A stretch of 64,000 nt of DNA. Source: an uncultured bacterium (GTDB lineage Bacteria; Patescibacteriota; Microgenomatia; Levybacterales; UBA12049). This document shows, piece by piece, positions 2,080 to 29,611 of the stretch. Position 1 is the stretch's first letter. The number at the start of each line of letters is the position of its first letter. A program made the translations under genes and the position numbers. The stretch covers positions 576,809-640,808 of the forward strand of contig CAWGXL010000011.1 of NCBI GenBank assembly GCA_963826535.1. Reading direction: 5' to 3'. Under the pieces are notes generated by a model that was not told the DNA's origin, made no database searches, and saw only the letters and a list, made by a program, of their open reading frames with translations.

Positions 2080-5000
2080 ATGTATAGGCGCCTGCCCAAT
2101 AGTGAAAAAATAGTTTATATCCAGCAATATCTCTCCGGAGAAAAAGCCTCGAATATCTGTAAAGATGCTAATGTTTCAAGAACGATTTTTTATAGATGGT
2201 TGAAGACATATAGGTCTAGTCATAGCCTCAAAAATAAGGATATATTGGCTTCAAAAATAGTTAAAGGGAAAAACCATTGGAAATCTTTGAATAGGAAGCA
2301 GCAGGAAGAAATAATAAAGCTTGCTATAAAATTCCCTACGTATTCAGCCCAAAAAATTGCTTCAGTTACCAAAGTAAGTACTCATGGAGTTTGGAATGTA
2401 TTAAAGCGTTACTCATTGAATACCAGGAAAGATCGGGGCCTGTATATTTCTAAATATGGTAGAAGTTTTATTAAATGCCCGGCTTATAATGATAAACTGA
2501 ATATGATTACACGCTATGAGCAAGAAGAGAAAGCTCATATAATCTGTAAGGATTTTGCTGTTTCACGTACAATTTTCTACAAATGGCTTAAGAGATACAG
2601 GCAGTCTAATAATGATATTGCAGCATTGAATGATATAAGGCCGAAAGGAGAGAAGCATTGGCGTTTTGTGCCCGGGGCAACCGGGATGGTATTGGATTTA
2701 GTTGTTGCGAGTCCAGAATTTTCTGTAAATAAGCTCACTAAGGAGATTCAATCTAAATTGCAAGGAGCGAAATCCCCCCAACCCCCTTTAGAAAAGGGGG
2801 CTAAAGTAATGAGTGTTCTAGGCAGGCATGGTATTTATAATATTTTAAAACGTCTTGATTTAAATACATATGAAAAAAGGTTAGCATACGCCAGGGCACA
2901 AGTGCCAATTGTGGTTCCAAAACCTCAAATTGCGGAAGTATCATTGCCTCCACAGCCAAGATATTCCTTTTTATCTTTTCTTTCCCCGCCACTCCGGAAT
3001 TATTTTTCTTCTTCTTTTGGAGTTACCGCAAGTATCTGTCTGATTGTTATCTTAATACCCATAGTTCTTCTTTCTTCTTTTCTTCCGGCAGATAGTTTTG
3101 GGCAGAGGATCGCTTACTTTATTGCTTTTATTTCTCTTCTTTGCGGTCTGTTTTTCTTTCTCTACTCGCTCAAGTATTATCTTTCCATTGCCTATGTTCT
3201 TTCTTTTTCACGCCGGGAAGACGGACAAAAGGATGGGAGTCCTTCGACAGGCTCAGGATTTGCAAGATTTTTAGCCGGGATATTTGGAGTTTCTATCAGT
3301 GTTGAAAATGTTGCGTCAGACGCGGTTTCTTCAAAGGTGGGAACGTCAAACGTTCCTTTTTATAATAATACTGCGGTTGGGCTGCAAGCTGATTTATCTA
3401 ATGTGAAGCTGGAGAGGAATCCTTTTGTCTCTGTGCATGTGTCAACTTATAACGAGAAACGGGTGATTGACCGGCTTTTGAGTGCCTGCACTTCATTTGA
3501 TTATCCCAACTATGAAGTGATTGTCGCCGATGATTCAAATGATGAGACGGTGGGGCTGATTGAGAAATGGGCGCATAACCCACATATTAAAATATCCCAC
3601 AGAGATAGTAGGGAAGGGTACAAAGGGGGGGCTCTTCAACAAGCGCTCAGGGTTACCGATTCCAGGGCAGAGTTTATATTGGTATTTGATGCGGATTTCA
3701 TTCCATACCCGGATACTATAGTTCAGTTTTTGAAGTATTTTCAACTCGCTACCGGCGGATTGGATAAAATCTCCCCTAACCCCTCTTTAATAAAGAGGGG
3801 AAATCAATTATCTCCCCCTTTTCTAAAGGGGGATGGGGGGATTTCTCCTATAGCTGCAGTCCAAGGTTATCAGTGGCATGTTTTAAATAAATCGGAGAAC
3901 TGGATAACGCGCGGGGTAAGAAGTGAATACGCGGGGTCTTATGTTATAGAGAGGTCAGGAGCGGAGCTTTATCATGGACTGAAACAAATATCCGGATCGG
4001 TCTATATGATTAGGCGCGATGTGCTGCAGGGAATTGGCTGGGGAACCTCACTTACGGAGGACTTTGAACTGACATTGAAACTTTATGAGGCAGGATTCAA
4101 AGTAGTCTATACACCTTATATCCAAGCACCGGCTGAGGCGGTGTCAACTATAAAGAGGCTGATCAGGCAGAGAATGAGATGGGCGGAGGGACACTCGTTT
4201 AATATTAAGAGGATGCTTATTCCGCTTTTGTTTGGAAGACATGAGATGCCGGTCGGGATTGCCACGTCGTCCCGGATGAGCGGGACTCCTCGCAATGACA
4301 GAAAGGGAAGGGTTTTCATACCTTCACCGCTGACTCGTTCGGAAAAGATGGAACTAGTCTATTTGGCTCCTTATTATCTGCAGGCTGCTTTATTCATTGT
4401 GGGGACCTTATGCTGGTTTATAGCGGAAGTTATCTTTCAAGTCAGACTTCCTTTCTGGACCGAGGTCTGGGGTTGGTCGCTGGTCGCAACTAATCTTTTT
4501 GCTCTGCCTCTTATGAATATGATAGGTATGTTCATGGAGGAATCGGATGAGAAGGATTATTTGGGCATTATATCCTTTGTAGTTCTTTCATATATTGTGG
4601 CACCATTCCAAGCATATGCGGCGGTGAAGGGATTTTTGGAAGACGTGGAGGGGCCATGGTTTAGGACACCTAAGACGGGGCGTATTACAGATACGCTTAT
4701 GCCGGGGAGGATCGCGAGGTTTGTGAGAGGGATTTTTGGCAGACATGCGCCTGCAGAATTTAAAAAGTCAAATAAACCGAAGGAGCTTGGAAATTTAAAT
4801 ACTTACTTTGCTTTGGCTACGGCGAATAATCAGTTTGGCGATTTCAAGATCAGAAGGAAAAATATAAGATGGGCTGGAAATTTAAGCGTGGTTGCGCTTT
4901 TGATAATATCCACTTTACTGGCTAATTTTGCAAATACGATGAGCTTCTCTGAGTCAGCTTATGCGTCGCAGCCTATTATGAAGACAGTTGGTGATAATAA

Positions 5001-8000
5001 TGTTTCTACGGATAATGAAGAAAAGGTAGATTTGGGTATCTCATCTGAGGAGACATTAAAAAAAGAACCGAAGAATAAGGATACAATTATCAAAAATGCT
5101 TTGGCTAAAGAGATTTCAGGTTATCGCTCTATTGCCAAAAAAACTCACAGCGGAGAGTTAGTTGAATTTATCTTTCATGAATCAGCAAAGGTTCGGGTAA
5201 AACTGGGGCATCGGGAAATTGAGTTTCAAACCAACTATATTGGTGGACAAAGAATTAATCCTAAGAGCGCAAAGGTATATCAAGATCAGGAAGTAATCTA
5301 TGAAGAAATTGTAAAAGGTATTGATCTGAAATATACAATCAATGGAGATCTGATGACGGAAGAGTTTATCGTTAAAGATAGGGAGGCGGCCAAAACATTT
5401 ATTGAACCCCACTTCGCCAAGGCTTCGCGGGGCACTGTCGTGCAGACGGTGCAGACTGTTGATGTAAAAGTTGTTTCTCCTGAAAACGAGAAAACATTTG
5501 GTTTCTTTACTGATGAAGGGAAAGAGTTATTTAAGTTTGCGAGTCCGTTTGCTAAGGATAACGATGGGAAGGTGAACAATAATATCTCGATCAGTTTAGA
5601 AAAGAGCAATATAGGGCATAAGCTTACAAAAACATTGGGCGGGTCGGCTAGAAGCTGGCTTGTTGATCCGAAACGGGCTTATCCGGTTGCGATTGATCCG
5701 ACGGTTATTGTCTCGGGATCAATTGGGGCTGATAGCGAGGTGCAATTTGGCGGGCTGCAGCGGAAATTGGCGGCGGTAAATACTGGAAGTGCTGATGCAT
5801 GGTGCAATGACACAAGCGGGATAACCTGTACTAGCTTCTGGACGAAGCGGAGAAAGATCACTTTTAATAATTCTGCATCTGCTGAAAACTTAACAAATTT
5901 TCCTATTATGGTAAAGCTGAATTCAAGCCGGATTACTTACGCAGATACACAAAGCGCGGGGCAGGATCTGAGGTTTGTTGATCCAACAGACAATACGGTT
6001 GTTCTCCCGCATGAGGTTGAGGAGTTTAATGAGACAGGGGATGACTTTGTGTGGGTGAAGGTGCCGCAAATTGATTCAGGGTCAACAACAGATTATATAT
6101 GGATGTATTATGGGAATGGTAGTATTGGGGATGGATCGGATCCAGCGAATGTGTGGGAGACTAATTATAAAGGTGTTTGGCATTTGAAAGAGAATCCGGC
6201 GGGTGGAGCACCACAGATGCTTGATAGTACAACTAATAATGGTGATGGTACATCAGCCGGTACTATGACTAGCGGTGATCAGGTAGGAGGACAAATTGAC
6301 GGGAGTTTGGATTTGGATGGGACGAATGATACTATAAGCGTTCCCGATTCTTCGATATTCAGCTTTACAAACGGAAGCGGCACTGATCTGCCGTATACGC
6401 TTTCGGCATGGGTTTTTATGAGGGATATCACGGAAACAGCGGGGATCGTATCGAAATGGGCGGATGCCGCTGATGACGCGGAGTGGGTATTATATATTAC
6501 AGGAAGCACAATGCTTATTGAAAATTATCATTTTGATGTTACCAATATATTCAGAGGCCGCACTGTTGCTCTTAATGCTGGCGCTCATCAGGACAGATGG
6601 ATGCATGTTGTTGCCACATATGACGGCTCTGAAGCAGTCGGCGGGTTTGCTATATATTTTGACGGGGTGCGGGTTGATACCACAAATTCAACCTTAGGTA
6701 GTTACACCGGAATGTCCTCAGTGGATTCTCCGGTAAGGATGGGTTCATATGACGACGATTCGGCGACTTTCTTGAACGGTATCATTGACCACGTCAGCGT
6801 TGCAGCAACCAACCGCTCGGCTGATTGGGTTGAGGCGGAGTTTAAATCAGGGGCGGATACGATTAATTCGTTTGGGGGTGAACAAACAAGCGCAGGTGAT
6901 ATTAATACATTCTATGCTTTTTATAATGATGCCGGGGTAGTCTCTTATAAAAAGTCAACTAATGCGGGTGCTTCGTGGGGGAGTGCTGTGACTGTATCGT
7001 CAAATGGGTCTGATACTGACAATCATAATCCTTCCATTGCAATTTCAAATAATTTTATCCATGTTTTTTGGGTTGATGATGGAGATAACGAGGTTCATGC
7101 ACGGCGCTTAGATACCAACTCGGATACACTAGGCACAGAATGTCTTACTTTGACTAGCTCGGCAAACATCAGTTCCAACTATATGGTGTCGGTTGCACAG
7201 CTTAGCGATACGAGTGCCATGGTGGCTTTTTCTGACACATCAGGAGGTACTGCCGGAGTGGATGTGTATGAAGTGACTAGTCTTGATGGCGCATGTGCCA
7301 TGACTGATGTTCATCCTGGGAATATAACCTTTGGATCACAAGGAGCTGGCTTGACCGATGGAGATCGACCTGTACTTGTCGGCCTTTCATCAACAACCGC
7401 AGCAGTTATCTTCCAGGATGGGGATCTGTCGTTTTCCTATTATGACGTGGCGCTTGATGAGTGGACCAGGAATAATCAGCAAATTGCCAATGTAGCTGAT
7501 TCCGTCTACTCAGTAACGACTGACGGGACCACGATCTGGATTTTGAGTAAATCAGGAACGACTGCTGCAAATTTGTATAGTCTTAATACTTCAACTTCAG
7601 ATATAACCGAGACGCAAATTGATAGCGCGGCGTCAGCAACCAATGGCCAGGACAATGTATCAGATATTGATATGTATTGTATTTCGGATACTGATTGTAA
7701 AATTGTTTATACCGATTTAATAAGTGACGCGGCGCCGGATTTGATATTTGTTGATTGTAATAATGCTGTTTGTAGTTCAAGTACCGCAGTTACACTAACT
7801 TCTGATTGCGGTGTAGCAAGCGCGGGCTGTAATCCGGCAATTCATTGTTCTTCAGGAACAGATTGTCATATAGTATTTCAGTTTACGGATGCCATACCTA
7901 TGGCAAGATTTGTTGATTGCGACGGGGCTGATAATACTAATGCTTGCAGTACAAACGCGACAGTAAATACAAATGCTGATATTGGGGGTGCCACTACGAG

Positions 8001-9165
8001 AAGCCATCTTGCAATTGATTGTCCAACCGGTACCAATTGTAAGTTTATTTATGGTAATGATACAGGAAATGGTGTGGATTTTGTCGATTGCGCTAATGAC
8101 CAGTGCGCTATCGCGAGCGATGTAATAACGGAAGTTATTGATTTTGGCGTTTCGGTGGTTGCCCCAAAGGTGGCTCTTGATTGTCCAAGCCCAACAGCGT
8201 GTAAGGTGGTGGCGCAGGATATTGACGCTGGGACACTTGTACTGGTTGATTGTAGTGGTGCCGTAACAACTGAGACATGTGCAGTGCCTCCGGCGCCAGA
8301 TATTATTGATGCCAGTAATGTTAGTGCCACTGCTGACCGTGTGCCGGTTGCAATAGATTGCGCAGGCGCTCCTACTGACTGTAAGGTAGCTTATGGGGAT
8401 GATACCGATGACGATTTGACTTTCGCAGATTGTAATGACACTGATTGTGATAGTCCGACGCGGACTGATATTGATCTTACTGGTGGTGCGACGACAAATA
8501 CTTCGCCGAGAGTCGATATGCATTGTCTGACTGCAACTGATTGTAAAATCCTTTACGAGGGGACTTTGACATCAGGATCTGAAGTTGCGTATTTCGTTGA
8601 TTGCGATAGCGCGGCCTGTACTTCAGGATCAGCGCTTGCAGATTTGGGGAACGCAAACCCGCGTTTCGGCGGAGCTATCTATTGTCCGGCAACCGATAAT
8701 TGCAAAATGGCCTACTATGAGGGGACAACCGGCACTGCTCCGACTGTTCAATTCGCAGATTGCAGTAAAGCTAAGTGTATGCCTGACTGGACTGATGCGG
8801 CTGATCCGTTTACAGGAGCGACAAATGTGTTATCTGTTTCAATTACATATGATTCAGCAAATGCTGATTTGTACGCGCATATTATTAAGGATACTACAGA
8901 GCAGGCATATTGGAAGACTACTGATGCAGCATCGATTTCCTGGGGGGCAGAGACTTCGTATGCGTTTGATACTACCGTGGGATCGCTCTCTGAGATGTCT
9001 GCGCCTATAAAGGCTACGTCAACGGATTTGATTGGTGTGGTGTTGCGCCGTTCTACTGTTGACAATTTTGAGTTTGCACCCCTGCCTGATTTCTCGTTGA
9101 TATTAATAGTCATCCTTCCAGTGTTGCCAAGATTATTAAGGAAGATACATAGACGGAGATGTTGA
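2080..9165 (+). CDS. Giant (2361-aa) multidomain membrane protein: two tandem transposase-like HTH/winged-helix modules, a processive family-2 glycosyltransferase (cellulose/chitin-synthase-like), TM helices, DUF2341 plus LamG/ConA-like lectin domain, an Asp-box/BNR-like segment, seven Cys-rich tandem repeats and a C-terminal tripartite sorting-signal-like tail
   Basis: Aa 1-260 hold two repeats of an IS630/IS3 OrfA-like HTH (ASNICKDANVSRTIFYRWLKTY / AHIICKDFAVSRTIFYKWLKRY, each followed by a winged-helix-like segment). The GT2 domain carries VSVHVSTYNE, ADDSND, KGGALQ, DAD and the processive-synthase QRMRW (QxxRW) motif. Several TM helices flank the GT2 domain. DUF2341-like DLRFVD...VWVKVP...YIWMYYGN is followed by a LamG-like fold (TLSAWVF ... 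WMHVVATYDG ... IYFDGVRV). STNAGASWG resembles an Asp-box. Seven units of about 40 aa of the form [ILV]DCxxxTDCK[IV]xY...[FV]VDCxxxxC follow. The tail is EFAPLPDFSLILIVILPVLPRLLRKIHRRRC. The frame is continuous with no stops. A Met-less stretch between the HTH region and the first TM region leaves open that the GT2 protein starts at a non-ATG codon downstream of a separate small HTH gene. Confidence 0.6.
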   Translation: MYRRLPNSEKIVYIQQYLSGEKASNICKDANVSRTIFYRWLKTYRSSHSLKNKDILASKIVKGKNHWKSLNRKQQEEIIKLAIKFPTYSAQKIASVTKVSTHGVWNVLKRYSLNTRKDRGLYISKYGRSFIKCPAYNDKLNMITRYEQEEKAHIICKDFAVSRTIFYKWLKRYRQSNNDIAALNDIRPKGEKHWRFVPGATGMVLDLVVASPEFSVNKLTKEIQSKLQGAKSPQPPLEKGAKVMSVLGRHGIYNILKRLDLNTYEKRLAYARAQVPIVVPKPQIAEVSLPPQPRYSFLSFLSPPLRNYFSSSFGVTASICLIVILIPIVLLSSFLPADSFGQRIAYFIAFISLLCGLFFFLYSLKYYLSIAYVLSFSRREDGQKDGSPSTGSGFARFLAGIFGVSISVENVASDAVSSKVGTSNVPFYNNTAVGLQADLSNVKLERNPFVSVHVSTYNEKRVIDRLLSACTSFDYPNYEVIVADDSNDETVGLIEKWAHNPHIKISHRDSREGYKGGALQQALRVTDSRAEFILVFDADFIPYPDTIVQFLKYFQLATGGLDKISPNPSLIKRGNQLSPPFLKGDGGISPIAAVQGYQWHVLNKSENWITRGVRSEYAGSYVIERSGAELYHGLKQISGSVYMIRRDVLQGIGWGTSLTEDFELTLKLYEAGFKVVYTPYIQAPAEAVSTIKRLIRQRMRWAEGHSFNIKRMLIPLLFGRHEMPVGIATSSRMSGTPRNDRKGRVFIPSPLTRSEKMELVYLAPYYLQAALFIVGTLCWFIAEVIFQVRLPFWTEVWGWSLVATNLFALPLMNMIGMFMEESDEKDYLGIISFVVLSYIVAPFQAYAAVKGFLEDVEGPWFRTPKTGRITDTLMPGRIARFVRGIFGRHAPAEFKKSNKPKELGNLNTYFALATANNQFGDFKIRRKNIRWAGNLSVVALLIISTLLANFANTMSFSESAYASQPIMKTVGDNNVSTDNEEKVDLGISSEETLKKEPKNKDTIIKNALAKEISGYRSIAKKTHSGELVEFIFHESAKVRVKLGHREIEFQTNYIGGQRINPKSAKVYQDQEVIYEEIVKGIDLKYTINGDLMTEEFIVKDREAAKTFIEPHFAKASRGTVVQTVQTVDVKVVSPENEKTFGFFTDEGKELFKFASPFAKDNDGKVNNNISISLEKSNIGHKLTKTLGGSARSWLVDPKRAYPVAIDPTVIVSGSIGADSEVQFGGLQRKLAAVNTGSADAWCNDTSGITCTSFWTKRRKITFNNSASAENLTNFPIMVKLNSSRITYADTQSAGQDLRFVDPTDNTVVLPHEVEEFNETGDDFVWVKVPQIDSGSTTDYIWMYYGNGSIGDGSDPANVWETNYKGVWHLKENPAGGAPQMLDSTTNNGDGTSAGTMTSGDQVGGQIDGSLDLDGTNDTISVPDSSIFSFTNGSGTDLPYTLSAWVFMRDITETAGIVSKWADAADDAEWVLYITGSTMLIENYHFDVTNIFRGRTVALNAGAHQDRWMHVVATYDGSEAVGGFAIYFDGVRVDTTNSTLGSYTGMSSVDSPVRMGSYDDDSATFLNGIIDHVSVAATNRSADWVEAEFKSGADTINSFGGEQTSAGDINTFYAFYNDAGVVSYKKSTNAGASWGSAVTVSSNGSDTDNHNPSIAISNNFIHVFWVDDGDNEVHARRLDTNSDTLGTECLTLTSSANISSNYMVSVAQLSDTSAMVAFSDTSGGTAGVDVYEVTSLDGACAMTDVHPGNITFGSQGAGLTDGDRPVLVGLSSTTAAVIFQDGDLSFSYYDVALDEWTRNNQQIANVADSVYSVTTDGTTIWILSKSGTTAANLYSLNTSTSDITETQIDSAASATNGQDNVSDIDMYCISDTDCKIVYTDLISDAAPDLIFVDCNNAVCSSSTAVTLTSDCGVASAGCNPAIHCSSGTDCHIVFQFTDAIPMARFVDCDGADNTNACSTNATVNTNADIGGATTRSHLAIDCPTGTNCKFIYGNDTGNGVDFVDCANDQCAIASDVITEVIDFGVSVVAPKVALDCPSPTACKVVAQDIDAGTLVLVDCSGAVTTETCAVPPAPDIIDASNVSATADRVPVAIDCAGAPTDCKVAYGDDTDDDLTFADCNDTDCDSPTRTDIDLTGGATTNTSPRVDMHCLTATDCKILYEGTLTSGSEVAYFVDCDSAACTSGSALADLGNANPRFGGAIYCPATDNCKMAYYEGTTGTAPTVQFADCSKAKCMPDWTDAADPFTGATNVLSVSITYDSANADLYAHIIKDTTEQAYWKTTDAASISWGAETSYAFDTTVGSLSEMSAPIKATSTDLIGVVLRRSTVDNFEFAPLPDFSLILIVILPVLPRLLRKIHRRRC
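2770..2803. repeat. Hairpin module (CCCCCTTTAGAAAAGGGGG) of the palindromic element family, in-frame inside the giant CDS
   Basis: A perfect 8-bp stem with a 4-nt loop. It encodes SPQPPLEKGAK in the linker between the HTH modules. Confidence 0.6.
3768..3849. repeat. Composite palindromic element (ATCTCCCCT...CCCTCTTTAATAAAGAGGGG...CCCTTTTCTAAAGGGGGATGGGGGGATTTCTCC) inserted in-frame in the GT2 domain of the giant CDS
   Basis: It shares modules with the 17357..17494 copy (CCCTCTTTAATAAAGAGGG, TCAATTA, CCCTTTAATAAAGG, GGGATTTC flank). It encodes SPNPSLIKRGNQLSPPFLKGDGGISP between the DAD and QxxRW motifs. Confidence 0.7.
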
Positions 9166-9509
9166 GTTAATAAGTTGTCTGTTTGTTTTTATTGTTAAAT
9201 AATTAGATCATATTTTATGAAATAGTGCGAATAGCAGGAGAAGTATTAAAAGTATTAGATCGCTCGAGCTCGCCAAATATCTAAATTATAGTAACTGTTA
9301 TTTATAATAACGCTAAGTTGTTAAATCTTAACAAAAAGATTTTATAGGAATTTAGAATTTACAATTAATTGAGTAAATTATACCTTCCTAGACATATAAC
9401 CTTGCAAAACATACTATTTAAAGTAGAGATTAGCACGGTCATATACATTCTAAACAGAGGATAGTTTTTAATAAACAACCAGCGTTTAGGTCACTAGATA
9501 ATTGAGTAT

Positions 9510-11540
9510 TTAATTTGGAGTTATGATAAGGTTGGGGCTGTTAAGGCTTTCTTTAGAGCCGAATTCTATTCTTCCATTTTCTCCTTCATCAGTTTTTTTG
9601 ATAAGCCAGCCGTAGTCTTCGCTTGAGCCATTGATAAACTCTTGAATGTCTGTAGTTACATCAAATTCTACTATGCCTGTTTGATTATTGGAGATTGCAG
9701 TTGTTACAGTAGGTGTTGATATAAAAGGCCAAAAAATACTGTTCGTCATATTCCACTGTGTAGGTCCGCTACAGTTATCAACAGTATTGTTAATATTTGA
9801 ATCGGTAGCACACTTCCATGTCGTTCCCAAGCCTGTTCCCTTCACAGGAGGCGTATTATTATCATTAAATCCATTACCTTCTGCCCAATCTGATGATAAT
9901 CTATGTATTCCAATTGTTCTTCCTCCAGTTCCCCAATTATTTCCATTATCAGATATTGTTAATTGTAATTTTGCACTAAAGTTTTGACTGTTTCCGACAG
10001 CCTCTTCAATTTGTGATTGGTCAAAACGAACGAGAGCCCGGTTTTTTCCTTGTAACTGTACTCTCATAAAAGTGGATGATCCCTCGTTTTCATTTGGTGA
10101 TCCTTGTTTTATATACGAGTCCGCTATAGGCGTAAGTGTCGTAGGTGGAGTATTATTGACAGTGATCGTGATCGCCACAGTATCAGACTCAATCGGCGTA
10201 CCATCGTCTGTGACTGTAAACTCTATATTCGTATATGTGCCCTCCTGACTGTAATTAGGAGTCCAAGAGAATGTTGCAGTTTGCGGGTCGAATGTTGCAC
10301 CTTCCGGGAGGTTGTTAGCGCTGTAGGTAAGGTTGTTACCGTCTGGATCAGTTGCTGTAATAGTGAATTGAAGAATTTGTCCTTCATCTATGATTTTATC
10401 ACTGACTGAAGTAAGAAAAGGCTCTTGGTTATTTGGGATGATCCCATCCCACAAGAAAATCTCAGCATCATTATCCACGTATCCAGGCCAAATTACATAT
10501 TCATTATCAATAATAGGTGAAGAATCATGATAGTCATTACTCGTTATCTGAAGTGTTACTCCACTTGAAATATAGTAGAGAAAAATTTCAGGATCAGTGC
10601 CTTTATATTGATACCACGTAACTTTTTCGTGGCTGAACCAAGGTGAATTATCACTATAATTATTGTTAGTTATTTGGGTTGTTATGCCGGTAGTAACGTC
10701 ATAGAGAAAAATTTCATTATCAGTGCCATCGTTTTCAGTCCACACAACCTTTCCATCATTTATCGGGGGAATATAGTCAATACTGCTGTTATTGGTTATC
10801 TGACTCGTTGTGCCAGTTGCACTGTCGTAGATGAGAATTTCAATATGGGAGCCAACATATCTAGACCAAACTACCCTTCCATCGCTTATTTGAGGAGAAC
10901 GATCATCATAGCTATCGTTGGTTATTTGAGTTGTTGCTCCGGTTGCAATGTGGTAGAGAAAAATTTCACTATCAGTGTCATCATATCTAGACCAAACAAC
11001 CCTCCCATCATTAACTTGGGGTGAGGTACTCCCATGGTTAGTTATCTGGATCGTTGTTGCAGTGGCAATGTCGTAGAGGAAAATACCGTCAGAGCTAGCC
11101 CACACAACCTTTCCATCGTTGATTTGAGCGCCACCATCGCTATAAATATTGTTAGTTATCTGGATCGTTGTTGCAGTGGCAATGTCGTAGAGGAAAATTT
11201 CTGTATCAGTACCGTCAGAGCCGGTCCATACAACCTTTCCATCATTAATTCGAAGATCTGGATTGTAAAAGTTATTGCTATTTATCTGAGTGGTTGTCCC
11301 AGTTGCAATGTCATGGAGAAAAATCTCAGAAGAATTAAATCCAGTACCATGGTACCATGTAATTTTTCCATTGCTTATTTGGGGAGAATAATCATTATAA
11401 TTATTAGATGTTAACTGAGTTATCTCGGCCATTACAGTTGAAATTCCCACTGTCATTGATAATACTATTAACATCACTAAGACCAGGCATATTTGCATCG
11501 ACTGTACTACAAATCTAAATAATTGGCTAAAGTTTATCAT
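9510..11540 (-). CDS. Secreted repeat protein: signal peptide, about 8 PD40/TolB-like beta-propeller repeats, an Ig-like (He_PIG/cadherin-like) domain and a C-terminal glycan-binding-like (DNRLRE-like) domain
   Basis: N-terminal hydrophobic signal (MINFSQLF...VGISTVMA). The repeat unit is about 42 aa: DGKVVW...DTEIFLYDIATGTTTQITNN.Y.D.SPQI. Then comes TITATDPDGNNLTYSANNLPEGATFDPQTATFSWTP...YTNIEFTVTDDG (Ig-like), then ADSYIKQGSPNENEGSSTFMRVQL...RALVRFD...SDWAEGNG. The antisense ORFs 10674..11024 and 11034..11414 are artefacts of the sense repeats. Confidence 0.6.
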   Translation of the reverse strand: MINFSQLFRFVVQSMQICLVLVMLIVLSMTVGISTVMAEITQLTSNNYNDYSPQISNGKITWYHGTGFNSSEIFLHDIATGTTTQINSNNFYNPDLRINDGKVVWTGSDGTDTEIFLYDIATATTIQITNNIYSDGGAQINDGKVVWASSDGIFLYDIATATTIQITNHGSTSPQVNDGRVVWSRYDDTDSEIFLYHIATGATTQITNDSYDDRSPQISDGRVVWSRYVGSHIEILIYDSATGTTSQITNNSSIDYIPPINDGKVVWTENDGTDNEIFLYDVTTGITTQITNNNYSDNSPWFSHEKVTWYQYKGTDPEIFLYYISSGVTLQITSNDYHDSSPIIDNEYVIWPGYVDNDAEIFLWDGIIPNNQEPFLTSVSDKIIDEGQILQFTITATDPDGNNLTYSANNLPEGATFDPQTATFSWTPNYSQEGTYTNIEFTVTDDGTPIESDTVAITITVNNTPPTTLTPIADSYIKQGSPNENEGSSTFMRVQLQGKNRALVRFDQSQIEEAVGNSQNFSAKLQLTISDNGNNWGTGGRTIGIHRLSSDWAEGNGFNDNNTPPVKGTGLGTTWKCATDSNINNTVDNCSGPTQWNMTNSIFWPFISTPTVTTAISNNQTGIVEFDVTTDIQEFINGSSEDYGWLIKKTDEGENGRIEFGSKESLNSPNLIITPN

Positions 11541-11592
11541 TATTTTTTATAAATAAGAGCTATAATATTAATGTTAAAGAGTAATTTTTTAA

Positions 11593-11808
11593 TTGTCAAG
11601 ATTGCTAAACATCTACGGATTTGATTGGGTAGCACTGAGGCAGGGGAATAATTATGAGTTTGCTCCGCTTCCTGAATATTCCCTAATGCTTCTGGCAATT
11701 CTGCCGTTGTTGCCAAAGCTTTTGAAACGGCTTCAGCGGCGGAGACGACTGATAATGGCTGATTATAGTCAAAATGATAGATTTAGGAACTTGAGATATG
11801 GAGTATAG
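11593..11808 (+). pseudogene. Orphan 71-aa ORF carrying only a copy of the C-terminal cassette of the giant protein (NNYEFAPLPEYSLMLLAILPLLPKLLKRLQRRRR); likely a gene remnant or a detached sorting-signal fragment
   Basis: Nucleotide-level similarity to 9065..9165 (AATTTTGAGTTTGCACCCCTGCCTGATTTCTCG vs AATTATGAGTTTGCTCCGCTTCCTGAATATTCC). There is no upstream domain. It lies between two convergent/divergent minus-strand genes. Confidence 0.4.
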
Positions 11809-11935
11809 GTGAGAATGGTGATTGTTTCATTGTTTTGTTAATCAATTGTTCCATTGTTGAATTGCTATGAAGATATATTTGCAGTTGAATGATATTGATT
11901 TTATATTGGACGAGGGAGGAGAAGTATAAACTAAA

Positions 11936-13084
11936 CTATGGGAAAACTAGACCGTACTTCCATATACCGTTACCTCCACATGCTCCGTATACTGTGCGAT
12001 TAAGAGCTAGTCTAGGAACAGCAATTGAGTAGTATCCACCGCAGAGATCACTGTATGGAGGGTTACCATTGAGACGTGTCCAACTGTTACCGGAATTATT
12101 ACTTAGGTATAAACCGTCACCACCGGTGCCTGCATAAAGTCTTTGACCAATTCCAAAGACAATATCCTGTACATCTGTTGGTGGGATACCGCTACTTGCA
12201 GGTTGCCAAGTTGTTCCTCCGTCCAGACTTTTTATGAGGTGATTGACTCCATCAAGCGCGTCGCTTCCTACAAAAACCGTTTGGTTTGTAGCATAATTTG
12301 GAGAAAGGACTACAGACCATGCACTTATAGTGTTTTCGATAAACGGTATTGAAAGAGTCCAGGTTGCACCACCATCAATGCTTTTTATAACACCAACGCT
12401 ACTTGGCGGAGCTTGCATATGAAGAGTCGCAAAAACCGTTTGGCCTGTTGAGTAGTTTGGAGAAAATCCGAAATCAGTAATACCTTGCCATGATGCGTCG
12501 TCTGGAAGGGGATGAATTACTTGCCAGGTATTCCCACCATCGGTGCTTTTTGCCAAGAGACTTGTTGTTGAGGCAATGCTACTTGCGATAAAAACCGTAT
12601 GGTCAGCTGCGAAATTGGGTGAAATGCCTATTTCCAATCCAGTAACCGTTGGATAATCTTGTGCCAATTGGGAATTAACAACTTGCCAGCTTGCTCCTCC
12701 GTCTGTACTGCGATAGACAGTACTCATATGAGGAAAACTTACAAAGACTGTTTGATCTGTTGCATAATTTGGAGAGACTGCAATCGAAGGACGGTAAGGG
12801 TCGAATGAAGATGGATTGGCAGGAGGTAGGCCGTTGGTCAACTGTGTCCATGTTCCACCTGCATTAGTACTTTTGTAAATTCCCTCAGCTGTATTGGCAA
12901 ATAATGTCCGTTCAAAAAGCAATGTCGGTGCCAACGCTACAGATCCAGTAGGAATATCTGTCAGGCCAAGGTGTTTCCAGCCATTGAGTCCTGGAAATAG
13001 TTGTGCTGAAGCATGAGGTGAATATAGACTAAAGAAGAAAGCTACAAAAATTAAAATAACAATTTTGTATACTTTGAGGACCAT
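11936..13084 (-). CDS. Secreted BNR/Asp-box repeat beta-propeller protein (sialidase-like / Ycf48-like fold)
   Basis: Signal peptide MVLKVYKIVILIFVAFFFSLYSPHASA. Six S-x-D-G-G-x-[TS]-W Asp-boxes: KSTNAGGTWTQL, RSTDGGASWQVV, KSTDGGNTWQVI, KSIDGGATWTLS, KSLDGGTTWQPA, LSNNSGNSWTRL. Confidence 0.75.
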   Translation of the reverse strand: MVLKVYKIVILIFVAFFFSLYSPHASAQLFPGLNGWKHLGLTDIPTGSVALAPTLLFERTLFANTAEGIYKSTNAGGTWTQLTNGLPPANPSSFDPYRPSIAVSPNYATDQTVFVSFPHMSTVYRSTDGGASWQVVNSQLAQDYPTVTGLEIGISPNFAADHTVFIASSIASTTSLLAKSTDGGNTWQVIHPLPDDASWQGITDFGFSPNYSTGQTVFATLHMQAPPSSVGVIKSIDGGATWTLSIPFIENTISAWSVVLSPNYATNQTVFVGSDALDGVNHLIKSLDGGTTWQPASSGIPPTDVQDIVFGIGQRLYAGTGGDGLYLSNNSGNSWTRLNGNPPYSDLCGGYYSIAVPRLALNRTVYGACGGNGIWKYGLVFP

Positions 13085-13181
13085 AATTATTTATATTGTT
13101 AGGTTAACAGTAATTCAGAAAAATGTCAAATGTGCGAAATGTTTGCGAATTATTTTTCTTTAATATGCAGTAGTTAGTCTT

Positions 13182-13430
13182 TTAACGGCGGTGGGATTTG
13201 GATGAAAGTTTTGATGCGATGTACAGCAAAAGCATGACGACCAACGTCAGCGCGAGAAGAATTTGGACATTAATACCGCTTGAGATCTGATAGCGGTGCA
13301 GTGGGTTCGAGAACTTCGGGACTTGGGGTATTACGTTATAATCTTCGAACGGTCGGGATGACAATGGGTTATGTTTTAAATAGTTCTTTGTGTGTTCCGA
13401 GGAGTGAAAAATAGGCAATCGTCTCGTCAC
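13182..13430 (-). CDS. Small hypothetical membrane protein (C-terminal TM helix ...INVQILLALTLVVMLLLYIASKLSSKSHRR); its 3' end is duplicated at 13944..14047
   Basis: An 82-aa ORF. The last ~35 codons lie in the 105-bp direct repeat. The 5' part overlaps the toxin gene in another frame, so the true start is uncertain. Confidence 0.35.
   Translation of the reverse strand: MTRRLPIFHSSEHTKNYLKHNPLSSRPFEDYNVIPQVPKFSNPLHRYQISSGINVQILLALTLVVMLLLYIASKLSSKSHRR
13186..13290. repeat. Left copy of a ~105-bp imperfect direct repeat flanking the toxin-antitoxin module
   Basis: CGGCGGTGGGATTTGGATGAAAGTTTTGATGCGATGTACAGCAAAAGCATGACGACCAACGTCAGCGCGAGAAGAATTTGGACATTAATAC is about 93% identical to 13944..14047. 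Confidence 0.8.
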
Positions 13431-13641
13431 CTGATTGTACTTCTTCGTAAAATGCCCGGTAGTCGTTGGTTATATCAATACTTCTATACCCCTCATACCC
13501 CCTCTGAAGTGCATGGTTATTGAGGACTGGCTCTTGGAGATTTTTCTCAAAGATTTTAATTCTTTCAAGGAAACTCTTGCGGATTCTCACGTCAAGTTTC
13601 TTCAATTTTTTCAGTAATTGGGGGCTTACCTGTGTTTTCAT
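13369..13641 (-). CDS. Type II toxin, RelE/ParE superfamily (YafQ/HigB-like mRNA interferase)
   Basis: A 90-aa protein with the C-terminal RelE/ParE signature ...YEGYRSIDITNDYRAFYEEVQ...IAYFSLLGTHKELF. Its start overlaps the upstream antitoxin stop (ATGA). Confidence 0.7.
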   Translation of the reverse strand: MKTQVSPQLLKKLKKLDVRIRKSFLERIKIFEKNLQEPVLNNHALQRGYEGYRSIDITNDYRAFYEEVQSGDETIAYFSLLGTHKELFKT

Positions 13642-13916
13642 ACACCTTGCTTGTGCAGCCAGGCAATCATTTCATCTGCAGAATCAAATATTGGCGAGGC
13701 TTTTCCTGCTTTTCTATTTTCTCTTGCTTTTTTTAGTTGTGCTTTTGCATAAGGAGTAAGTTTTTCACCGGTAAACGTAATTGCTTTTCTTCTCGCAAAC
13801 TCTTTAAGTAACCCAGTGATAACAGCACTTAGACTCAACCCCATCTCTTTGGCAGTTTTTTGTGCGTCATCTTTCACCCTCCGGTCTGTTTTTATGAGTA
13901 TAGATACTGTATTCAT
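13638..13916 (-). CDS. Type II antitoxin, RelB/DinJ family (ribbon-helix-helix)
   Basis: A 92-aa protein: MNTVSILIKTDRRVKDDAQKTAKEMGLSLSAVITGLLKEF matches the DinJ/RelB RHH N-terminus. It is the first gene of a two-gene operon with the toxin. Confidence 0.7.
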   Translation of the reverse strand: MNTVSILIKTDRRVKDDAQKTAKEMGLSLSAVITGLLKEFARRKAITFTGEKLTPYAKAQLKKARENRKAGKASPIFDSADEMIAWLHKQGV

Positions 13917-13943
13917 ATAGTAAAATTATATCTTTTTTATATA

Positions 13944-14047
13944 TTCTGTCAAGCGCGGTGGGATTTGGATGAAAGTTTTGATGCAATGTACAGCAAAAGC
14001 ATGACGATCAAGGTCAGCGCGAGAAGAATTTGGACATTAATACTGAT
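13944..14047. repeat. Right copy of the ~105-bp direct repeat. On the minus strand it encodes a truncated 38-aa copy (MNNFWEISINVQILLALTLIVMLLLYIASKLSSKSHRA) of the small membrane protein's C-terminus
   Basis: Direct alignment with 13186..13290. The residual short ORF is below the 60-aa track threshold. Confidence 0.75.
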
Positions 14048-14556
14048 TTCCCAGAAATTATTCATTTTTACCAAATTGTATGCTTTATCGATCAGGCTTC
14101 CAGTCTGGTATCATTGTATATGAACAATAAAATGATAAATAAGAAGAAGTTTTTATCTAATGTGATGGAGATTTTTGGTAGATTATCTATGAGACCTGGT
14201 AGACTTCTTGTAAAAAGCAATATAAATCAGCAGTATTGTCACTGCTAAAAGTAGTGTTATGATAAGGAATCTAGTATTAATATCGAGAAAAAATGCTTCG
14301 TTCATATATATACTTGCTCGTCCAGTTTTACGGCTAAAACTAAAAATATGATAGCAGCGATAATATCGTATGTCAATGACAAGAAGCCTGGAAGTGAATT
14401 TATAGGTACGAAATTAGGTGTGATTATGACTAAGCCTAGAGCTGCTGCTGCTAAATTGGTAGATAGACCAGAAAGGACTCTCAGGAGTGACTTATTGCCA
14501 AAAAATTTTCTCATTAAAAATACTCTACTGATTTTAGAGATATCTGTCAATATTGT

Positions 14557-15147
14557 ATGAAAAATGTTTTGAAAGCGGCCAGACTTCATCCTTCAAAGGA
14601 GATGTTTATCACTATCTTTCTTATTTTGGTCTTGATGCTTATGCTTTTTCCTTTCATGTCGACGTTTAATGATGTATTGACGAGGATTGTTATTAATTTT
14701 AAGGGGTATTGGTTTATTAGGGAGGTTATTGTGCCGTTTGAGGTGAAGATGGTGGGGGCGATACTTTCGCTAATGGGCATGCAGGTTACGTTGACCAAGG
14801 AGTATGTCGTAATCGGGCAGGCTGAGCCGTTTGTGGCGGAGATTATGTGGAATTGTATCGGGTGGCAGTCGCTGCTTTTCTTCATAACGACTTCATGGGT
14901 GGGATTACAAGGAGACCGCTACACAAATTTTTCAAAACTTAAAGCCTTTGTAATAGGACTTCTTGGTACTTTTCTTATTAATATTTTCCGGATTGTTATC
15001 GTTATATTAATCGCTTATTATGCCGGGCAATTTGTGGCTGCTATTGTGCATGATTACGGGTCGCTTCTGGTGAGCATTGGCTGGCTGTTTTTCTACTGGT
15101 GGTTTGTGTACAGTTTTGTGCTAGAGGAGAGGGATGCTTCTAGTTAG
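14557..15147 (+). CDS. Small (196-aa) polytopic membrane protein with an exosortase/archaeosortase-like signature (candidate sorting transpeptidase)
   Basis: Five or six predicted TM helices. FVAEIMWNCIGWQSL resembles the exosortase active-site block V.EaCSG.rSL. GTFLINIFRIVIVIL, 47 residues later, matches the conserved N-x-x-R block; the Cys...Arg spacing of 41-47 residues is as in ArtA/XrtA. The gene lies about 3-5 kb from two ORFs carrying a PEP-CTERM-like tripartite tail. The membrane-protein call is solid; the family call is tentative. Confidence 0.45.
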   Translation: MKNVLKAARLHPSKEMFITIFLILVLMLMLFPFMSTFNDVLTRIVINFKGYWFIREVIVPFEVKMVGAILSLMGMQVTLTKEYVVIGQAEPFVAEIMWNCIGWQSLLFFITTSWVGLQGDRYTNFSKLKAFVIGLLGTFLINIFRIVIVILIAYYAGQFVAAIVHDYGSLLVSIGWLFFYWWFVYSFVLEERDASS

Positions 15148-15342: not shown

Positions 15343-16326
15343 ATGAATAAAATGTTTTTTTTGTTATTGATACTAAGTCTGGCAGGAAATGCTTTGTGGG
15401 CATTTAATGTTTTTCAGCCTCAAAAAAAAGACCAAGTTCAAGTTATAGAGACGAAGAATAAGTATCCTTTACTCGCCAAAAGGATTTTTATTGAAGACCG
15501 CAATGATGTTATCATCAATTTTATTTCTCTCCGAATGGATCTCAGCGAGTTGGCTGCGAAAGAAGAAGGAAAGATGGGAATATTTTTTGAATATCTTCCA
15601 ACCGGGGTAACAATTGGTATCAATGAAGAGGAAGGGTTTCGGCGCGCAAGTCTTGTCAAGGTGCCGACTGTAATGAGGGCATATAAATTAATAGAGGAAG
15701 AGAAATTGTCCAAACAACAAGTTCTAATTGTCGAAAAAAAGCACTTAGATTCAGGGTTTGGTAAGCTTTACAAAGAAGGCGTGGGAACAAAACTTACTGT
15801 AGAAGAAGTAATAGACTTGATACTTTTAAAATCAGATAATACTGCCTATAATGTGCTCAGAGATGAAATTAATGAAATGTTTAATAAAGAGCAAGGATCG
15901 GATAATGAGATATTGTCTGTTTATGAGTATTTGGATATTCCGAAAGAGGCTGATCAGAATACTTTGGAAATATCTCCCAAAAATTTTAGTTCAATGCTCA
16001 TGAGTCTTCATTTTTCGTCATATTTGTCGCTTGAAAGCTCGAATGAGATACTGGATATTATGTCCAAGAGAGCTAAAAGCTTCAATATGATTTCTGCTGC
16101 AGTGCCAAAGGAGATAAAGGTTGCTGATAAATTTGGTGTCAATGCAGAGGGAGAAAATGAGATTGTCACCTCTGATTGCGGGATTGTATATGTGCCTAAG
16201 CGGCCATACATATTGTGCGTGATGGTGAAGGAGCGCCCGGAAGTGGCGGCAGAAAAGATTCTTGCAGTCTCGAAGTTGGTATATGATTTTGTTTCAAAAG
16301 TGAATCCTCCTAATACGGGTGATTGA
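15343..16326 (+). CDS. Secreted serine hydrolase of the class A beta-lactamase family (beta-lactamase-like / DD-peptidase-like)
   Basis: Signal peptide MNKMFFLLLILSLAGNALWA. It carries the S-x-x-K motif (RASLVKVPTV), the SDN motif (LLKSDNTAYNVL) and a KTG-like triad (KFGVN). Confidence 0.6.
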   Translation: MNKMFFLLLILSLAGNALWAFNVFQPQKKDQVQVIETKNKYPLLAKRIFIEDRNDVIINFISLRMDLSELAAKEEGKMGIFFEYLPTGVTIGINEEEGFRRASLVKVPTVMRAYKLIEEEKLSKQQVLIVEKKHLDSGFGKLYKEGVGTKLTVEEVIDLILLKSDNTAYNVLRDEINEMFNKEQGSDNEILSVYEYLDIPKEADQNTLEISPKNFSSMLMSLHFSSYLSLESSNEILDIMSKRAKSFNMISAAVPKEIKVADKFGVNAEGENEIVTSDCGIVYVPKRPYILCVMVKERPEVAAEKILAVSKLVYDFVSKVNPPNTGD

Positions 16327-24294: not shown

Positions 24295-25398
24295 TCAGAA
24301 TTTTTCTTCCGAGGGCTTAGTGCCTTTTATTATTTTTATTAACTGCTGAACCCTCAAGCCTTCCTTTATAGACGGTTTCATTTGTTGCTTATTTATGCAC
24401 GCAAGCGTAAACCTTTCGGCTATCTTTTTTATAACCTCAACTCTTGCTTTTTCGTCAGTCTTTGTGGAAATATTAGTTTTAGATTCTGGATTCCCGCCTT
24501 CGCGGGAATGACGATTGCGTAAGGCGTAAATAATTGGTTTTTTTCCATTATCGGTATAAATTGTGATTATAAAGTTTTTGACAAAACCGTTTTTGTTTTC
24601 GAGTATTATTGTTCCTCTTTTACATTTAAATATTAGTTGATGTCGGTTAAGTCCAACTGTATCGCAAGAAAGGTGAGCCATGCCGCGAGTTTTATTTTTG
24701 AAACCGAATAAAAGATCTACACCTACTTCTGCTTTGTTTAAGCTTTTTTTAGAATAAGAGAAATTACTTTTGATATCGTTTATTTCTCCACCAAAATATT
24801 CCAAATAATAAAGAGTGTGAGAAAAGTAGAAAGACAAGGCACCCCCTCCAATGGATGGGTCAGTTTTCCATGTTGAAATTTTGTTTTTAAGATCGAAGCT
24901 CAGAAAATTCCAGTTGACTGTAATATGTTTTAGTTTTCCGTACTTATTATTATCTAGTAATTTTTTTACTTTTATCCATTCATCTATTTCGGGGAAAATA
25001 AAATCGACCGCGTGGGTAATTTTATATTTAACAGCCAGAGCATAAAGAATCTTTGCGTGTTCATAGGTGTCTGCAAGAGGTTTTTCAGCAAATATATGAA
25101 TTCCTTTTTGTATCGCGGTTTTTGCAATAGTGTATTGCGCGGCTGGGGTGACTGCTATTGCAAGCGCGTCTAATTTTTCCTTATCAAGCATTTCCCGCCA
25201 GTCGGTATAAGTATTTTTTAATCCCAGGCTAAAATAATATTTGGATAAGCGCTGCGGGTTATTTGCGCAGACGGCAACTATTGTGCAATTTTTTAGTGAA
25301 TAAAAAGCGGGAAGAAGTCCATATAAGCCAAAGCCGGAACCTATAATGCCAACTTTTATAATAGCCATTTGGAGTATTATATGGCAAAAAGGTATCAT
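24295..25398 (-). CDS. Gfo/Idh/MocA-family NAD(P)-dependent oxidoreductase (sugar dehydrogenase/ketoreductase) with an in-frame palindromic-element insertion; the likely true start is the internal Met (MAIIKVGIIGSG, near 25368)
   Basis: Rossmann motif KVGIIGSGFG, FAEKPLA and a C-terminal EGLRVQQLIKIIK. The element copy at 24486..24513 encodes RHSREGGNPES. Confidence 0.75.
   Translation of the reverse strand: MIPFCHIILQMAIIKVGIIGSGFGLYGLLPAFYSLKNCTIVAVCANNPQRLSKYYFSLGLKNTYTDWREMLDKEKLDALAIAVTPAAQYTIAKTAIQKGIHIFAEKPLADTYEHAKILYALAVKYKITHAVDFIFPEIDEWIKVKKLLDNNKYGKLKHITVNWNFLSFDLKNKISTWKTDPSIGGGALSFYFSHTLYYLEYFGGEINDIKSNFSYSKKSLNKAEVGVDLLFGFKNKTRGMAHLSCDTVGLNRHQLIFKCKRGTIILENKNGFVKNFIITIYTDNGKKPIIYALRNRHSREGGNPESKTNISTKTDEKARVEVIKKIAERFTLACINKQQMKPSIKEGLRVQQLIKIIKGTKPSEEKF
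24486..24513. repeat. Palindromic repeat element, copy B (CTGGATTCCCGCCTTCGCGGGAATGACG), in-frame inside the oxidoreductase CDS
   Basis: The same conserved flanks and stem as copy A; the stem is ATTCCCGC/GCGGGAAT. Confidence 0.8.
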
Positions 25399-25419
25399 TT
25401 GGTATAATAGCGTTTAAAG

Positions 25420-26097: not shown

Positions 26098-26142
26098 TTT
26101 GGAACCCACGGGACTAATCGCGGCGTAGTTTTAGTCTCGATA

Positions 26143-27030: not shown

Positions 27031-27070
27031 AAAATAATTTCAGTTTCTAAGAGACCTTTTAAATAGGCAC

Positions 27071-28351: not shown

Positions 28352-28460
28352 CGGATAATTATAGCACAGGTATTTTGAGACCGTTCCCGCCTAAGCTTAC
28401 TTCAAGCCTTTTCAGTACTATTCGTACACGGTTTGAAGAGCGCTTGGTCGGCGGGCAGGC

Positions 28461-28544
28461 GTGAATTAAAATTTTTTTTGCTGCGAAACTCGCCCGCTGA
28501 GAGGGCTCAGACAGTCTTGCTGCAAAAAATTTTATTCACTCACT
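28461..28544. repeat. ~85-bp structured palindromic element (nested hairpins), copy 1; terminator-like or ncRNA-like
   Basis: GTGAATTAAAATTTTTTTTGCTGCGAAACTCGCCCGCTGAGAGGGCTCAGACAGTCTTGCTGCAAAAAATTTTATTCAC. The outer stem is GTGAAT.AAAATTTTTT..GCTGC / GCAGCAAAAAATTTTATTCAC, and the inner stem is CTGAG...CTCAG. It is about 90% identical to 32476..32559. Confidence 0.7.
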
Positions 28545-28564
28545 TTCTCACTTTCTAATATAAA

Positions 28565-29491: not shown

Positions 29492-29611
29492 ATGTGGTTT
29501 ATAAATGCAAATTCTTGCGTAAAGTATAGCATAGACTTAATCTTAAGAATGCAGGATATTTTTGACTTTAAGAACTGATATAATTTCTCTAAGTTTCTAT
29601 CCAAAAATATT

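Follow-up and report, generated by a model that had tools for sequence, protein, structure and literature searches.

In a 64-kb stretch of DNA from an uncultured Levybacterales bacterium of the Patescibacteriota (contig CAWGXL010000011.1, positions 576,809 to 640,808; hereafter the window), a giant membrane glycosyltransferase with a signal-like C-terminal tail is encoded upstream of a small membrane protein of the exosortase/archaeosortase family. The glycosyltransferase, a 2361-aa GT2 synthase (2080..9165, + strand), and the 196-aa mini-exosortase (14557..15147, + strand) probably form a dedicated two-gene protein-processing module, in which the synthase is the predicted substrate. Exosortases have been known from Gram-negative bacteria and archaea, as sorting enzymes that act on many substrates. 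A preliminary description of the window had envisaged a sorting or anchoring system with two tailed proteins, the synthase and a 71-aa open reading frame (ORF; 11593..11808). Translation placed both tails and the 196-aa ORF where they had been described. The checks proposed with that description all turned out in its favour, and none of its refuting conditions came true; the pairing of the enzyme with the giant synthase stood, and the evidence points to a dedicated one-to-one system, not a multi-protein pathway.

The mini-exosortase and the tailed synthase

Regarding the enzyme, profile searches revealed that the hydrophobic 196-aa protein matches TIGR04178 (39.2 bits, cut-off 23) and PF09721 (29 bits, gathering score 25.7), and TIGR04178 was also matched by 27 of 27 sampled homologs. 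The protein contains WNCIGWQS, with Cys100 (14854..14856, + strand), and NIFR, with Asn142 and Arg145 (14980..14991, + strand), as well as His165 (15049..15051, + strand). In an alignment of 27 homologs, no variation is seen at C100, G102, N142, R145 and H165 and next to none at G168; the Cys-to-Arg spacing, earlier given as 47 residues, is actually 45. The EpsH family shares invariant Cys-x-Gly, Asn-x-x-Arg and His-x-x-x-Gly motifs, and in its proteins, which have eight or more transmembrane (TM) helices, the triad is located in three successive helices, close to the outer end of each (PMC1569441). An AlphaFold2 model of the window protein (mean pLDDT 84, pTM 0.77) has helices at residues 13-29, 31-47, 50-72, 103-116, 124-156 and 158-188 and a small beta-sheet at 77-95; in three successive helices, Cys100, Arg145 and His165 are therefore each positioned toward one end, as described for EpsH.

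The protein aligns only to positions 130-249 of the 254 in PF09721 and to positions 116-270 of the 274 in ArtC, which is the best subfamily model (33.4 bits against a cut-off of 100). Among the named subfamilies compared (ArtC, XrtG, XrtX, XrtM, XrtV, CrtC, ArtE and ArtF), no cut-off was reached, and all besides ArtC scored far lower. Small named members of the family do exist, the XrtX, XrtM and XrtG profiles being 150-187 aa long. A CAAX-protease or rhomboid identity was rejected for lack of any such Pfam or NCBIfam match. A Foldseek search of the model against the PDB gave no match at E <= 0.001, and a profile search of PDB sequences gave nothing. Judged by its sequence, the 196-aa protein is a true but minimal exosortase/archaeosortase-family member, in line with the resemblance noticed earlier; the search for its homologs in the window found one.

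The synthase is composed of two N-terminal helix-turn-helix (HTH) domains, two TM segments, a GT2 catalytic domain, four further TM segments, an ectodomain of ~1390 aa and a tripartite tail, in this order, as deduced from its translation, Pfam/NCBIfam domains, hydropathy and homologs in related loci. The two cytoplasmic HTH domains (residues 4-47 and 135-176; 2089..2607, + strand) match HTH_23, HTH_28, HTH_29 and IS481/IS630-type HTH models, and the pair also occurs in the synthase homologs of loci L039, L057 and L080. The GT2 domain (residues 450-705; 3427..4194, + strand) is of the processive-synthase type, scoring above the cut-offs of PF00535, PF13641 and PF13632 and matching PgaC and cellulose-synthase models in part. 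It is flanked by TM segments within residues 313-362 and 770-947; hydropathy places them at 313-331, 344-362, 770-788, 801-819, 830-848 and 929-947, in addition to the tail helix. The variable ectodomain (4921..9063, + strand) contains DUF7948, DUF2341, Cys-rich 'DC..T.CK' repeats and a conserved last domain ending ..IGVVLRR...; among synthase homologs its length and content differ, while both ends of the protein are retained. Basic stretches are strong before TM 929-947 and recur after the tail helix, with ~1390 residues between them. These stretches, together with the Cys-rich repeats and DUF2341 that they enclose, fit a location of the ectodomain outside the cell, and we infer such a topology, in which the last helix would present the P-D motif on its outer side. 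Instead of a signal peptide, the substrate has the cytoplasmic HTH domains at its N-terminus, followed by TM segments.

The translated synthase ends in ...TSTDLIGVVLRRSTVDNFEFAPLPDFSLILIVILPVLPRLLRKIHRRRC at its stop codon. Its tail (9064..9162, + strand) consists of NFEFAP-LPD, with the core at 9082..9090, the hydrophobic helix FSLILIVILPVLPRLL (9091..9138) and the basic cluster RKIHRRRC (9139..9162). A tail profile built from other genomes scored this tail at 62.4 bits (E 6e-19) and the tail of the 71-aa ORF at 69.8 bits (E 3e-21); no other tail was found in the window, where the next best ORF reached 5.6 bits. The same tripartite layout was found in 51 related loci, whose cores are VPE (26), IPE (14), LPE (6), VDE (4) and APE (1). 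All tail subtypes keep the basic cluster, the motif [VIL]-P-[ED] and, ~10 residues within the helix, a Pro; in the tails designated subtype A, the Phe, Pro, Glu and in-helix Pro show no or almost no variation. Motif and helix follow each other directly, without a spacer. Conservation and tripartite architecture, by which sorting signals are recognized (Haft 2023, section 5), are both present in the tails, and orthologs of the giant protein keep the motif, as the preliminary description required of a true signal.

The earlier version of the motif, FAPLP(D/E), survived in part. Sequence comparison indicates that the signal core is [VIL]-P-[ED], to which the in-helix Pro can be added, and that the folded domain before it ends in 'EFA', in one subtype only. 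'EFA' is placed outside the signal proper because 'IGVVLR..NFEF' closes a folded module that is repeated without a following helix in the metagenome protein P0143. This 532-aa protein carries four tandem copies of the last ectodomain module; its internal copies end in ..GKFRFSNLTPSQS without a helix, and the last copy ends in ..NYEFSVIPEY plus a helix.

PEP-CTERM, PGF-CTERM and GlyGly-CTERM signals are described as a motif, a helix and a basic cluster, and the window tail matches this description. In searches at E <= 10, no NCBIfam sorting-signal model matched either window tail or seven of eight other tails, in agreement with the claim that the motif falls outside the named classes; one distant tail reached 14.4 bits against PEP_CTERM (TIGR02595), the cut-off of which is 16. 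The features of a sortase/LPXTG signal were not found: the motif has no spacer before the helix, and no sortase-family match was obtained among the neighbours scanned.

Linkage, distribution and substrate range

Homologs of the 196-aa protein numbered 347 at E <= 0.001, and those that carry a name in their source are called only 'exosortase/archaeosortase family protein' or 'hypothetical'. The enzyme locus scan, with one genome per species, gave 256 confirmed places, and 80 loci were fetched (numbered L001 onward). These belong to Levy-, Curtiss-, Woese-, Davies-, Gottesman- and Chisholmbacteria, other Patescibacteria, Anaerolineae and Dehalococcoidia. The module had been suggested to be lineage-specific, an idea that does not hold for a system spanning many Microgenomates groups and Chloroflexota. 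Many contigs with a Microgenomates-type module (e.g., L002, L006, L010, L044 and L066) were deposited as 'uncultured Gammaproteobacteria' or 'Bathyarchaeia' metagenome-assembled genomes, and these labels are probably wrong.

Linkage was counted over the 62 loci whose upstream sequence extends for 3 kb or more, requiring a tail-bearing ORF on the same strand within 3.1 kb. A long tail-bearing ORF was located upstream of the enzyme in 43 of them, at a median gap of 117 bp. In the reverse direction, a metagenome scan started from 10 closer tails with the motif N[FY]EFA[TP][LV]PE alone, and the enzyme was encoded downstream on the same strand (E <= 1e-94) in 11 of the 14 loci retrieved. The co-occurrence of motif and enzyme that had been suggested was thus seen from both sides, and the proximity of the two genes corresponds to the nearby enzyme and target genes by which dedicated systems are recognized (Haft 2023).

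When the loci were compared with the giant protein by tblastn, matches fell in its TM-GT2-TM part and mostly within the upstream tail ORFs, and a GT2 domain was present in all seven distant upstream ORFs scanned with Pfam, which come from Patescibacteria and Chloroflexota. These distant synthases differ in their cytoplasmic N-terminal module (HTH pair, MerR, receiver or MshEN) and in the stretch from GT2 to tail, which ranges from a few hundred to ~2000 residues. Membrane GT2 synthases with swappable cytoplasmic N-terminal modules are an observation in their own right: the Microgenomates proteins have two transposase-like HTH domains, the L027 protein has MerR, and the proteins of L052 (labelled Anaerolineae) and L069 (labelled Dehalococcoidaceae) have a response-regulator receiver, with MshEN additionally in L069. 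A polysaccharide synthase with a fused DNA-binding domain is unusual. The Anaerolineae synthase further contains three RNA polymerase alpha-CTD-like (helix-hairpin-helix) domains between the GT2 module and the tail (L052:5990-6180, residues ~768-829), which would be extracellular under the proposed topology.

A neighbour-joining tree of the enzymes revealed that their clades coincide with the tail subtypes, namely subtype A (NFEFAxVPE...PFLPK), subtype B (SSLxIPENLLGxLPLGLLLPK), subtype C (STPxIIVPE) and the Chloroflexota type (VTVDELGWRLLLLAPLVP). Two or three distinct pairs, each with its own tail type, occur within single genomes (MFBZ, JACPKP, MHCL and MFNZ); examples are Daviesbacteria JACPKP, with type A in L017 and type B in L032, Curtissbacteria MFBZ (L005 and L062) and Chisholmbacteria MHCL (L019, L053 and L076). 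Extra copies were also noticed: L005:1161-1742 is a second enzyme gene right after the tail ORF, and in L003:13268-15876 the whole pair of synthase tail and enzyme is present again, 4 kb downstream.

Concerning the range of substrates, 1.84 billion representative proteins were screened at E <= 0.001 with a profile built from four tails; of the 41 hits, all except one match at their very C-terminal end. The 16 sequences retrieved, together with a single Pfam GT2 hit (P0157), showed the ectodomain or the GT2 domain of the tailed synthase family. The one hit with its match elsewhere, an unrelated repeat protein, was rejected as a false positive. A word-index protein search with a 24-tail profile found only two 51-aa proteins, one a frameshift artefact and the other a relic tail. 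Repeated occurrence on unrelated proteins was not seen: the carriers examined belong to one protein family, and the window has one working copy. In dedicated systems, tandem enzyme and target genes stand in for the multi-copy criteria (10.1101/2023.06.07.544157, section 5). The restriction of the tail to one protein family therefore points to a dedicated one-enzyme, one-substrate system instead of a general sorting pathway.

The relic tail and the genomic surroundings

The 71-aa ORF, which has a TTG start only and no ATG, encodes ...NNYEFAPLPEYSLMLLAILPLLPKLLKRLQRRRR and then runs on for 19 codons beyond the RRRRLI at which it had been said to end. In a check for Shine-Dalgarno sequences, none was seen at any of the neighbouring genes, which makes this signal uninformative here. 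Over 33 aligned codons, the two window tails differ at 37 of 99 nucleotides; 8 codons are identical, 12 differ only synonymously, and the 13 replacements are all conservative. Such replacements and synonymous codons imply that the two tails are homologous and not a chance match, which bears out the earlier claim. Within the ORF lies a relic of an ancestral tail (11609..11755, + strand), reading TSTDLIG / VALRQGNNYEFAPLPEYSLMLLAILPLLPKLLKRLQRRRR, then TGA TAA out of frame. TSTDLIG is read in a second frame and is the same as in the giant's ...TSTDLIGVVLRR. If one base is restored after ATTGG, TDLIGVALRQGNNYEF is read in a single frame, and if one C is dropped after the fourth Arg codon, TGA TAA falls right after RRRR. 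Because of these two frame-disrupting indels relative to the ancestral frame, the 71-aa ORF is interpreted as a gene relic and not as the second carrier or substrate for which it had been taken. With the working tail of the closest relative, L100, the relic shares 23 of 33 positions, and the tail of the giant shares 17 of 33. The L100 enzyme is 78% identical to that of the window, and the L100 tail ends 73 bp upstream of it.

Substrate and enzyme in the window are separated by a lineage-specific insert on the opposite strand (9510..13916, - strand; Pfam/NCBIfam). It encodes a beta-propeller/He_PIG/DNRLRE protein (9510..11540, - strand), a BNR/sortilin-like protein (11936..13084, - strand) and a ParE-toxin/RelB-antitoxin pair with overlapping genes (13369..13916, - strand). 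The 3' end that the synthase gene originally had would survive, decayed, in the 71-aa ORF, orphaned by a recombination that may have brought in another tail-coding gene end plus the opposite-strand genes. Relic tails were also observed in L082:4633-8010 (also L083), where the order is giant tail, opposite-strand propeller gene, relic tail, opposite-strand beta-lactamase-like gene, tail fragment and enzyme. The two L082 relics, a 51-aa ORF (6504-6659) and a fragment (7754-7849), each follow an opposite-strand gene in a layout like that of the window. Descent from a common ancestor was considered for the genes that follow the giant gene on the opposite strand in the window and in L082 and was not upheld; the encoded repeat proteins are only 22% identical, so that the two layouts need not share an origin. 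Another synthase homolog (L014:1840-2261, + strand) ends in two complete in-frame tandem tails, ...NSQFEFSTLPENVLIYIIALPVLAGLIRKF-FYDSTKSELEFETVPENILLIIVLFPVLSRLVSRYRKKR. The first basic cluster of this pair has shrunk to RK, and the two tails cannot both take the usual orientation. In a more speculative reading, which we consider quite unlikely, the tail-coding segment would act as a homology handle by which ectodomain ends and neighbouring genes are swapped, and this would explain the relic tails in the window and L082/L083 as well as the tandem tail in L014.

Downstream of the enzyme, a class A beta-lactamase/penicillin-binding fold protein (15343..16326, + strand; PF13354, 117.6 bits) is a recurrent neighbour; homologs adjoin the enzyme in L013, L019, L021, L064, L082 and L099, either directly behind it or in the interval between substrate and enzyme. 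A large region for the biosynthesis of surface glycans occupies 24295..62414. It contains several GT4 enzymes, two of which are double-domain proteins (727 and 744 aa), and also encodes a Wzx-type flippase (30947..32449), a C-methyltransferase (27071..28351) and a GFO/IDH/MocA oxidoreductase; two ORFs of ~965 aa (33987..39841) had no Pfam match. Exosortases are usually encoded in polysaccharide loci (PMC1569441), and the setting in the window agrees with this. Two further membrane proteins recur near the module. One, of ~700 aa, was observed in the window (21347..23458, + strand) and in L006, L020, L027, L030, L039, L041, L072, L074 and L077; it ends in a C-terminal helix plus a basic stretch, and the window copy has no Pfam match. 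The other, a ~270-aa single-pass protein without Pfam matches, is often encoded between synthase and enzyme in subtype-A loci (L001:3577-4422, with homologs in L003, L006, L011, L020, L098 and L099) and is absent from the window. Scans of the window for tRNA genes and Rfam families were empty.

Proposed function and relation to known systems

In the proposed mechanism, the ectodomain of the synthase would be outside the cell, and the final helix, preceded by [VIL]-P-[ED], would re-enter the membrane and leave the Arg/Lys cluster in the cytoplasm. The enzyme would be a cut-down cysteine enzyme with Cys100, Arg145 and His165 near the outer membrane face. It would recognize the tail helix within the membrane and cleave at or beside P-[ED]. 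The sequence data demonstrate the family membership of the enzyme, the tripartite tail, the linkage of the two genes in both directions, the matched divergence and the confinement of the tail to one family of proteins. Cleavage itself, the acceptor and the biological role are proposed by analogy with ArtA and XrtA; the new C-terminus would probably be passed to an acceptor, e.g., a lipid or a cell-envelope glycan, as suggested by ArtA and the sortases. To our knowledge, exosortase-family chemistry is unproven outside ArtA.

Several points weigh against a dedicated processing module. All of its support is computational, with cleavage and transfer remaining predictions. On the side of the enzyme, five or six helices were found instead of the eight or more of the EpsH type, the His motif is H-x-x-G, one residue shorter than H-x-x-x-G, and there is no solved exosortase structure for comparison. 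As for the tail, the window core is LPD, with Asp here and Glu in all relatives, and conservation on one protein family could merely reflect a conserved last helix. No tail passed the filter in 19 of the 62 informative loci, and any two neighbours with a functional link would be expected to diverge in step, as enzyme and tail do. The tail-to-enzyme gap in the window is 5392 bp, far from the median of its relatives, and is explained by the insert of opposite-strand genes. Furthermore, 'sorting' in the usual sense is inapplicable, because the substrate has no signal peptide and would still be tethered by six other TM segments after cleavage.

Some of these points are shared by a different explanation, according to which the tail is simply the last structural anchor of the synthase family and the exosortase-like protein acts otherwise in the glycan pathway, as a scaffold or on another protein or a lipid. 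It is consistent with the occurrence of the tail on one family without unrelated carriers, with a substrate that lacks a signal peptide and has other TM segments, and with the report that disruption of EpsH left methanolan production unaffected in Methylobacillus (PMC1569441). An anchor, however, would leave several features unaccounted for: the tail is kept at the extreme C-terminus although the preceding region of 700-3000 aa varies freely, the P-E core is joined to the helix in precisely the manner of known exosortase signals, the putative catalytic residues are invariant, orthogonal pairs in one genome retain their own tail types, and a distant tail almost reaches the PEP_CTERM cut-off. 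We regard the anchor explanation as unlikely. In a bolder extension of the processing model, the synthase would be both the maker of a glycan and the substrate of a private transpeptidase, its ectodomain C-terminus being joined covalently to the nascent glycan or to a lipid. If true, this would be a self-anchoring synthase-glycan conjugate in bacteria without classical envelope machinery; we consider it quite unlikely.

General one-to-many sorting, with further tailed proteins elsewhere in the 894-kb genome and the synthase as merely the nearest substrate, might be expected from the median of eight substrates in classical PEP-CTERM systems (PMC1569441), and it is favoured by the two tails noticed at first and by a tail scan of the source genome that covers only the 64-kb window. 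Since the second tail is a pseudogene fragment, no further tail occurs in the window, the hits examined from the 1.84 billion proteins all fall in the synthase family, and there is one tail per enzyme copy across loci, this explanation is very unlikely. The 71-aa ORF might also be a working signal-only membrane peptide, a decoy or regulator, with tail-only ORFs elsewhere as conserved genes. Its tail shows only conservative replacements relative to that of the giant, with 12 codons changed only synonymously, it outscores the giant's tail on the family profile, and L082/L083 present a similar layout with an ATG-initiated 51-aa ORF. On the other hand, a 1-nt deletion after TSTDLIG breaks its frame, a 1-nt insertion loses the double stop, and it lacks an ATG; start, length and post-cluster sequence are not conserved between the window and L082, no such ORF occurs in the close relatives L001 and L100, and the other '51-aa protein', P0121, is a frameshift artefact. 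A working peptide is thus highly improbable, and the dedicated enzyme-synthase module remains the preferred interpretation.

Comparison with described systems places this module near several of them. It shares with PEP-CTERM/exosortase systems (XrtA, EpsH) the enzyme family with its invariant Cys, Asn-x-x-Arg and His motifs, the tripartite signal with a Pro-Glu core abutting the helix, and the polysaccharide locus. In contrast, the window enzyme is approximately half the size of XrtA/EpsH (five to six helices against at least eight), its motif is [VIL]-P-E-x without a third Pro, TIGR02595 does not match the window tails, and one substrate per enzyme, a polytopic synthase without a signal peptide, replaces the many substrates. 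Patescibacteria and Chloroflexota have no outer membrane, unlike the Gram-negative hosts of PEP-CTERM. Archaeosortases share the single-membrane envelope, and the window motifs PDF and PEY resemble the PEF of PEF-CTERM. ArtC is the closest specific model, matched by 27 of 27 homologs with a best E-value of 1e-9, although the window enzyme covers only the C-terminal 55% of the ArtC profile and its 33 bits are far under the cut-off of 100. ArtA/PGF-CTERM, where loss of the C-terminal helix is tied to the attachment of a lipid, offers the best working analogy. The window system differs from those of archaea in being bacterial, in having one dedicated substrate and in tails that no NCBIfam sorting-signal model matched, a set that would cover any PEF-CTERM or PGF-CTERM model of the library.

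The nearest described arrangement is XrtG of Firmicutes, where a small exosortase has one Firmicu-CTERM target and two neighbouring glycosyltransferases (PMC12854382). Both systems have a small enzyme (XrtG profile 187 aa), single-membrane bacterial hosts, a single dedicated target and GT2 clustering. The XrtG model matches the window protein only at E = 0.24, and its target is a separate small protein with glycosyltransferases as neighbours, whereas in the window system the glycosyltransferase itself carries the signal. JDVT-CTERM/MrtJ and other one-to-one pairs (Haft 2023) likewise have enzyme and single target in tandem and conserved in-helix residues; such residues, here the Pro ~10 after the Glu, suggest recognition within the membrane. 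MrtJ is of the Rce1/CAAX type, in contrast to the exosortase of the window, and the window signal has no invariant Cys. Full-text searches turned up no paper on an exosortase in Microgenomates or Patescibacteria and only incidental mentions for the Candidate Phyla Radiation and Chloroflexi, and the mini-exosortase/synthase pair appears never to have been named or described before.

The module would add to the exosortase family a half-size enzyme retaining only the catalytic core, single-membrane and largely uncultured hosts among the Microgenomates and Chloroflexota, and a strict pairing with one substrate that is itself a processive glycan synthase. Hundreds of genes whose present label is only 'hypothetical' or 'exosortase/archaeosortase family protein' would receive a specific annotation, and so would the C-terminus of a recurrent giant protein of candidate phyla. 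With two genes, one motif and three catalytic residues, this compact pair would be well suited for testing the function of the exosortase family and the coupling of protein processing to polysaccharide synthesis.

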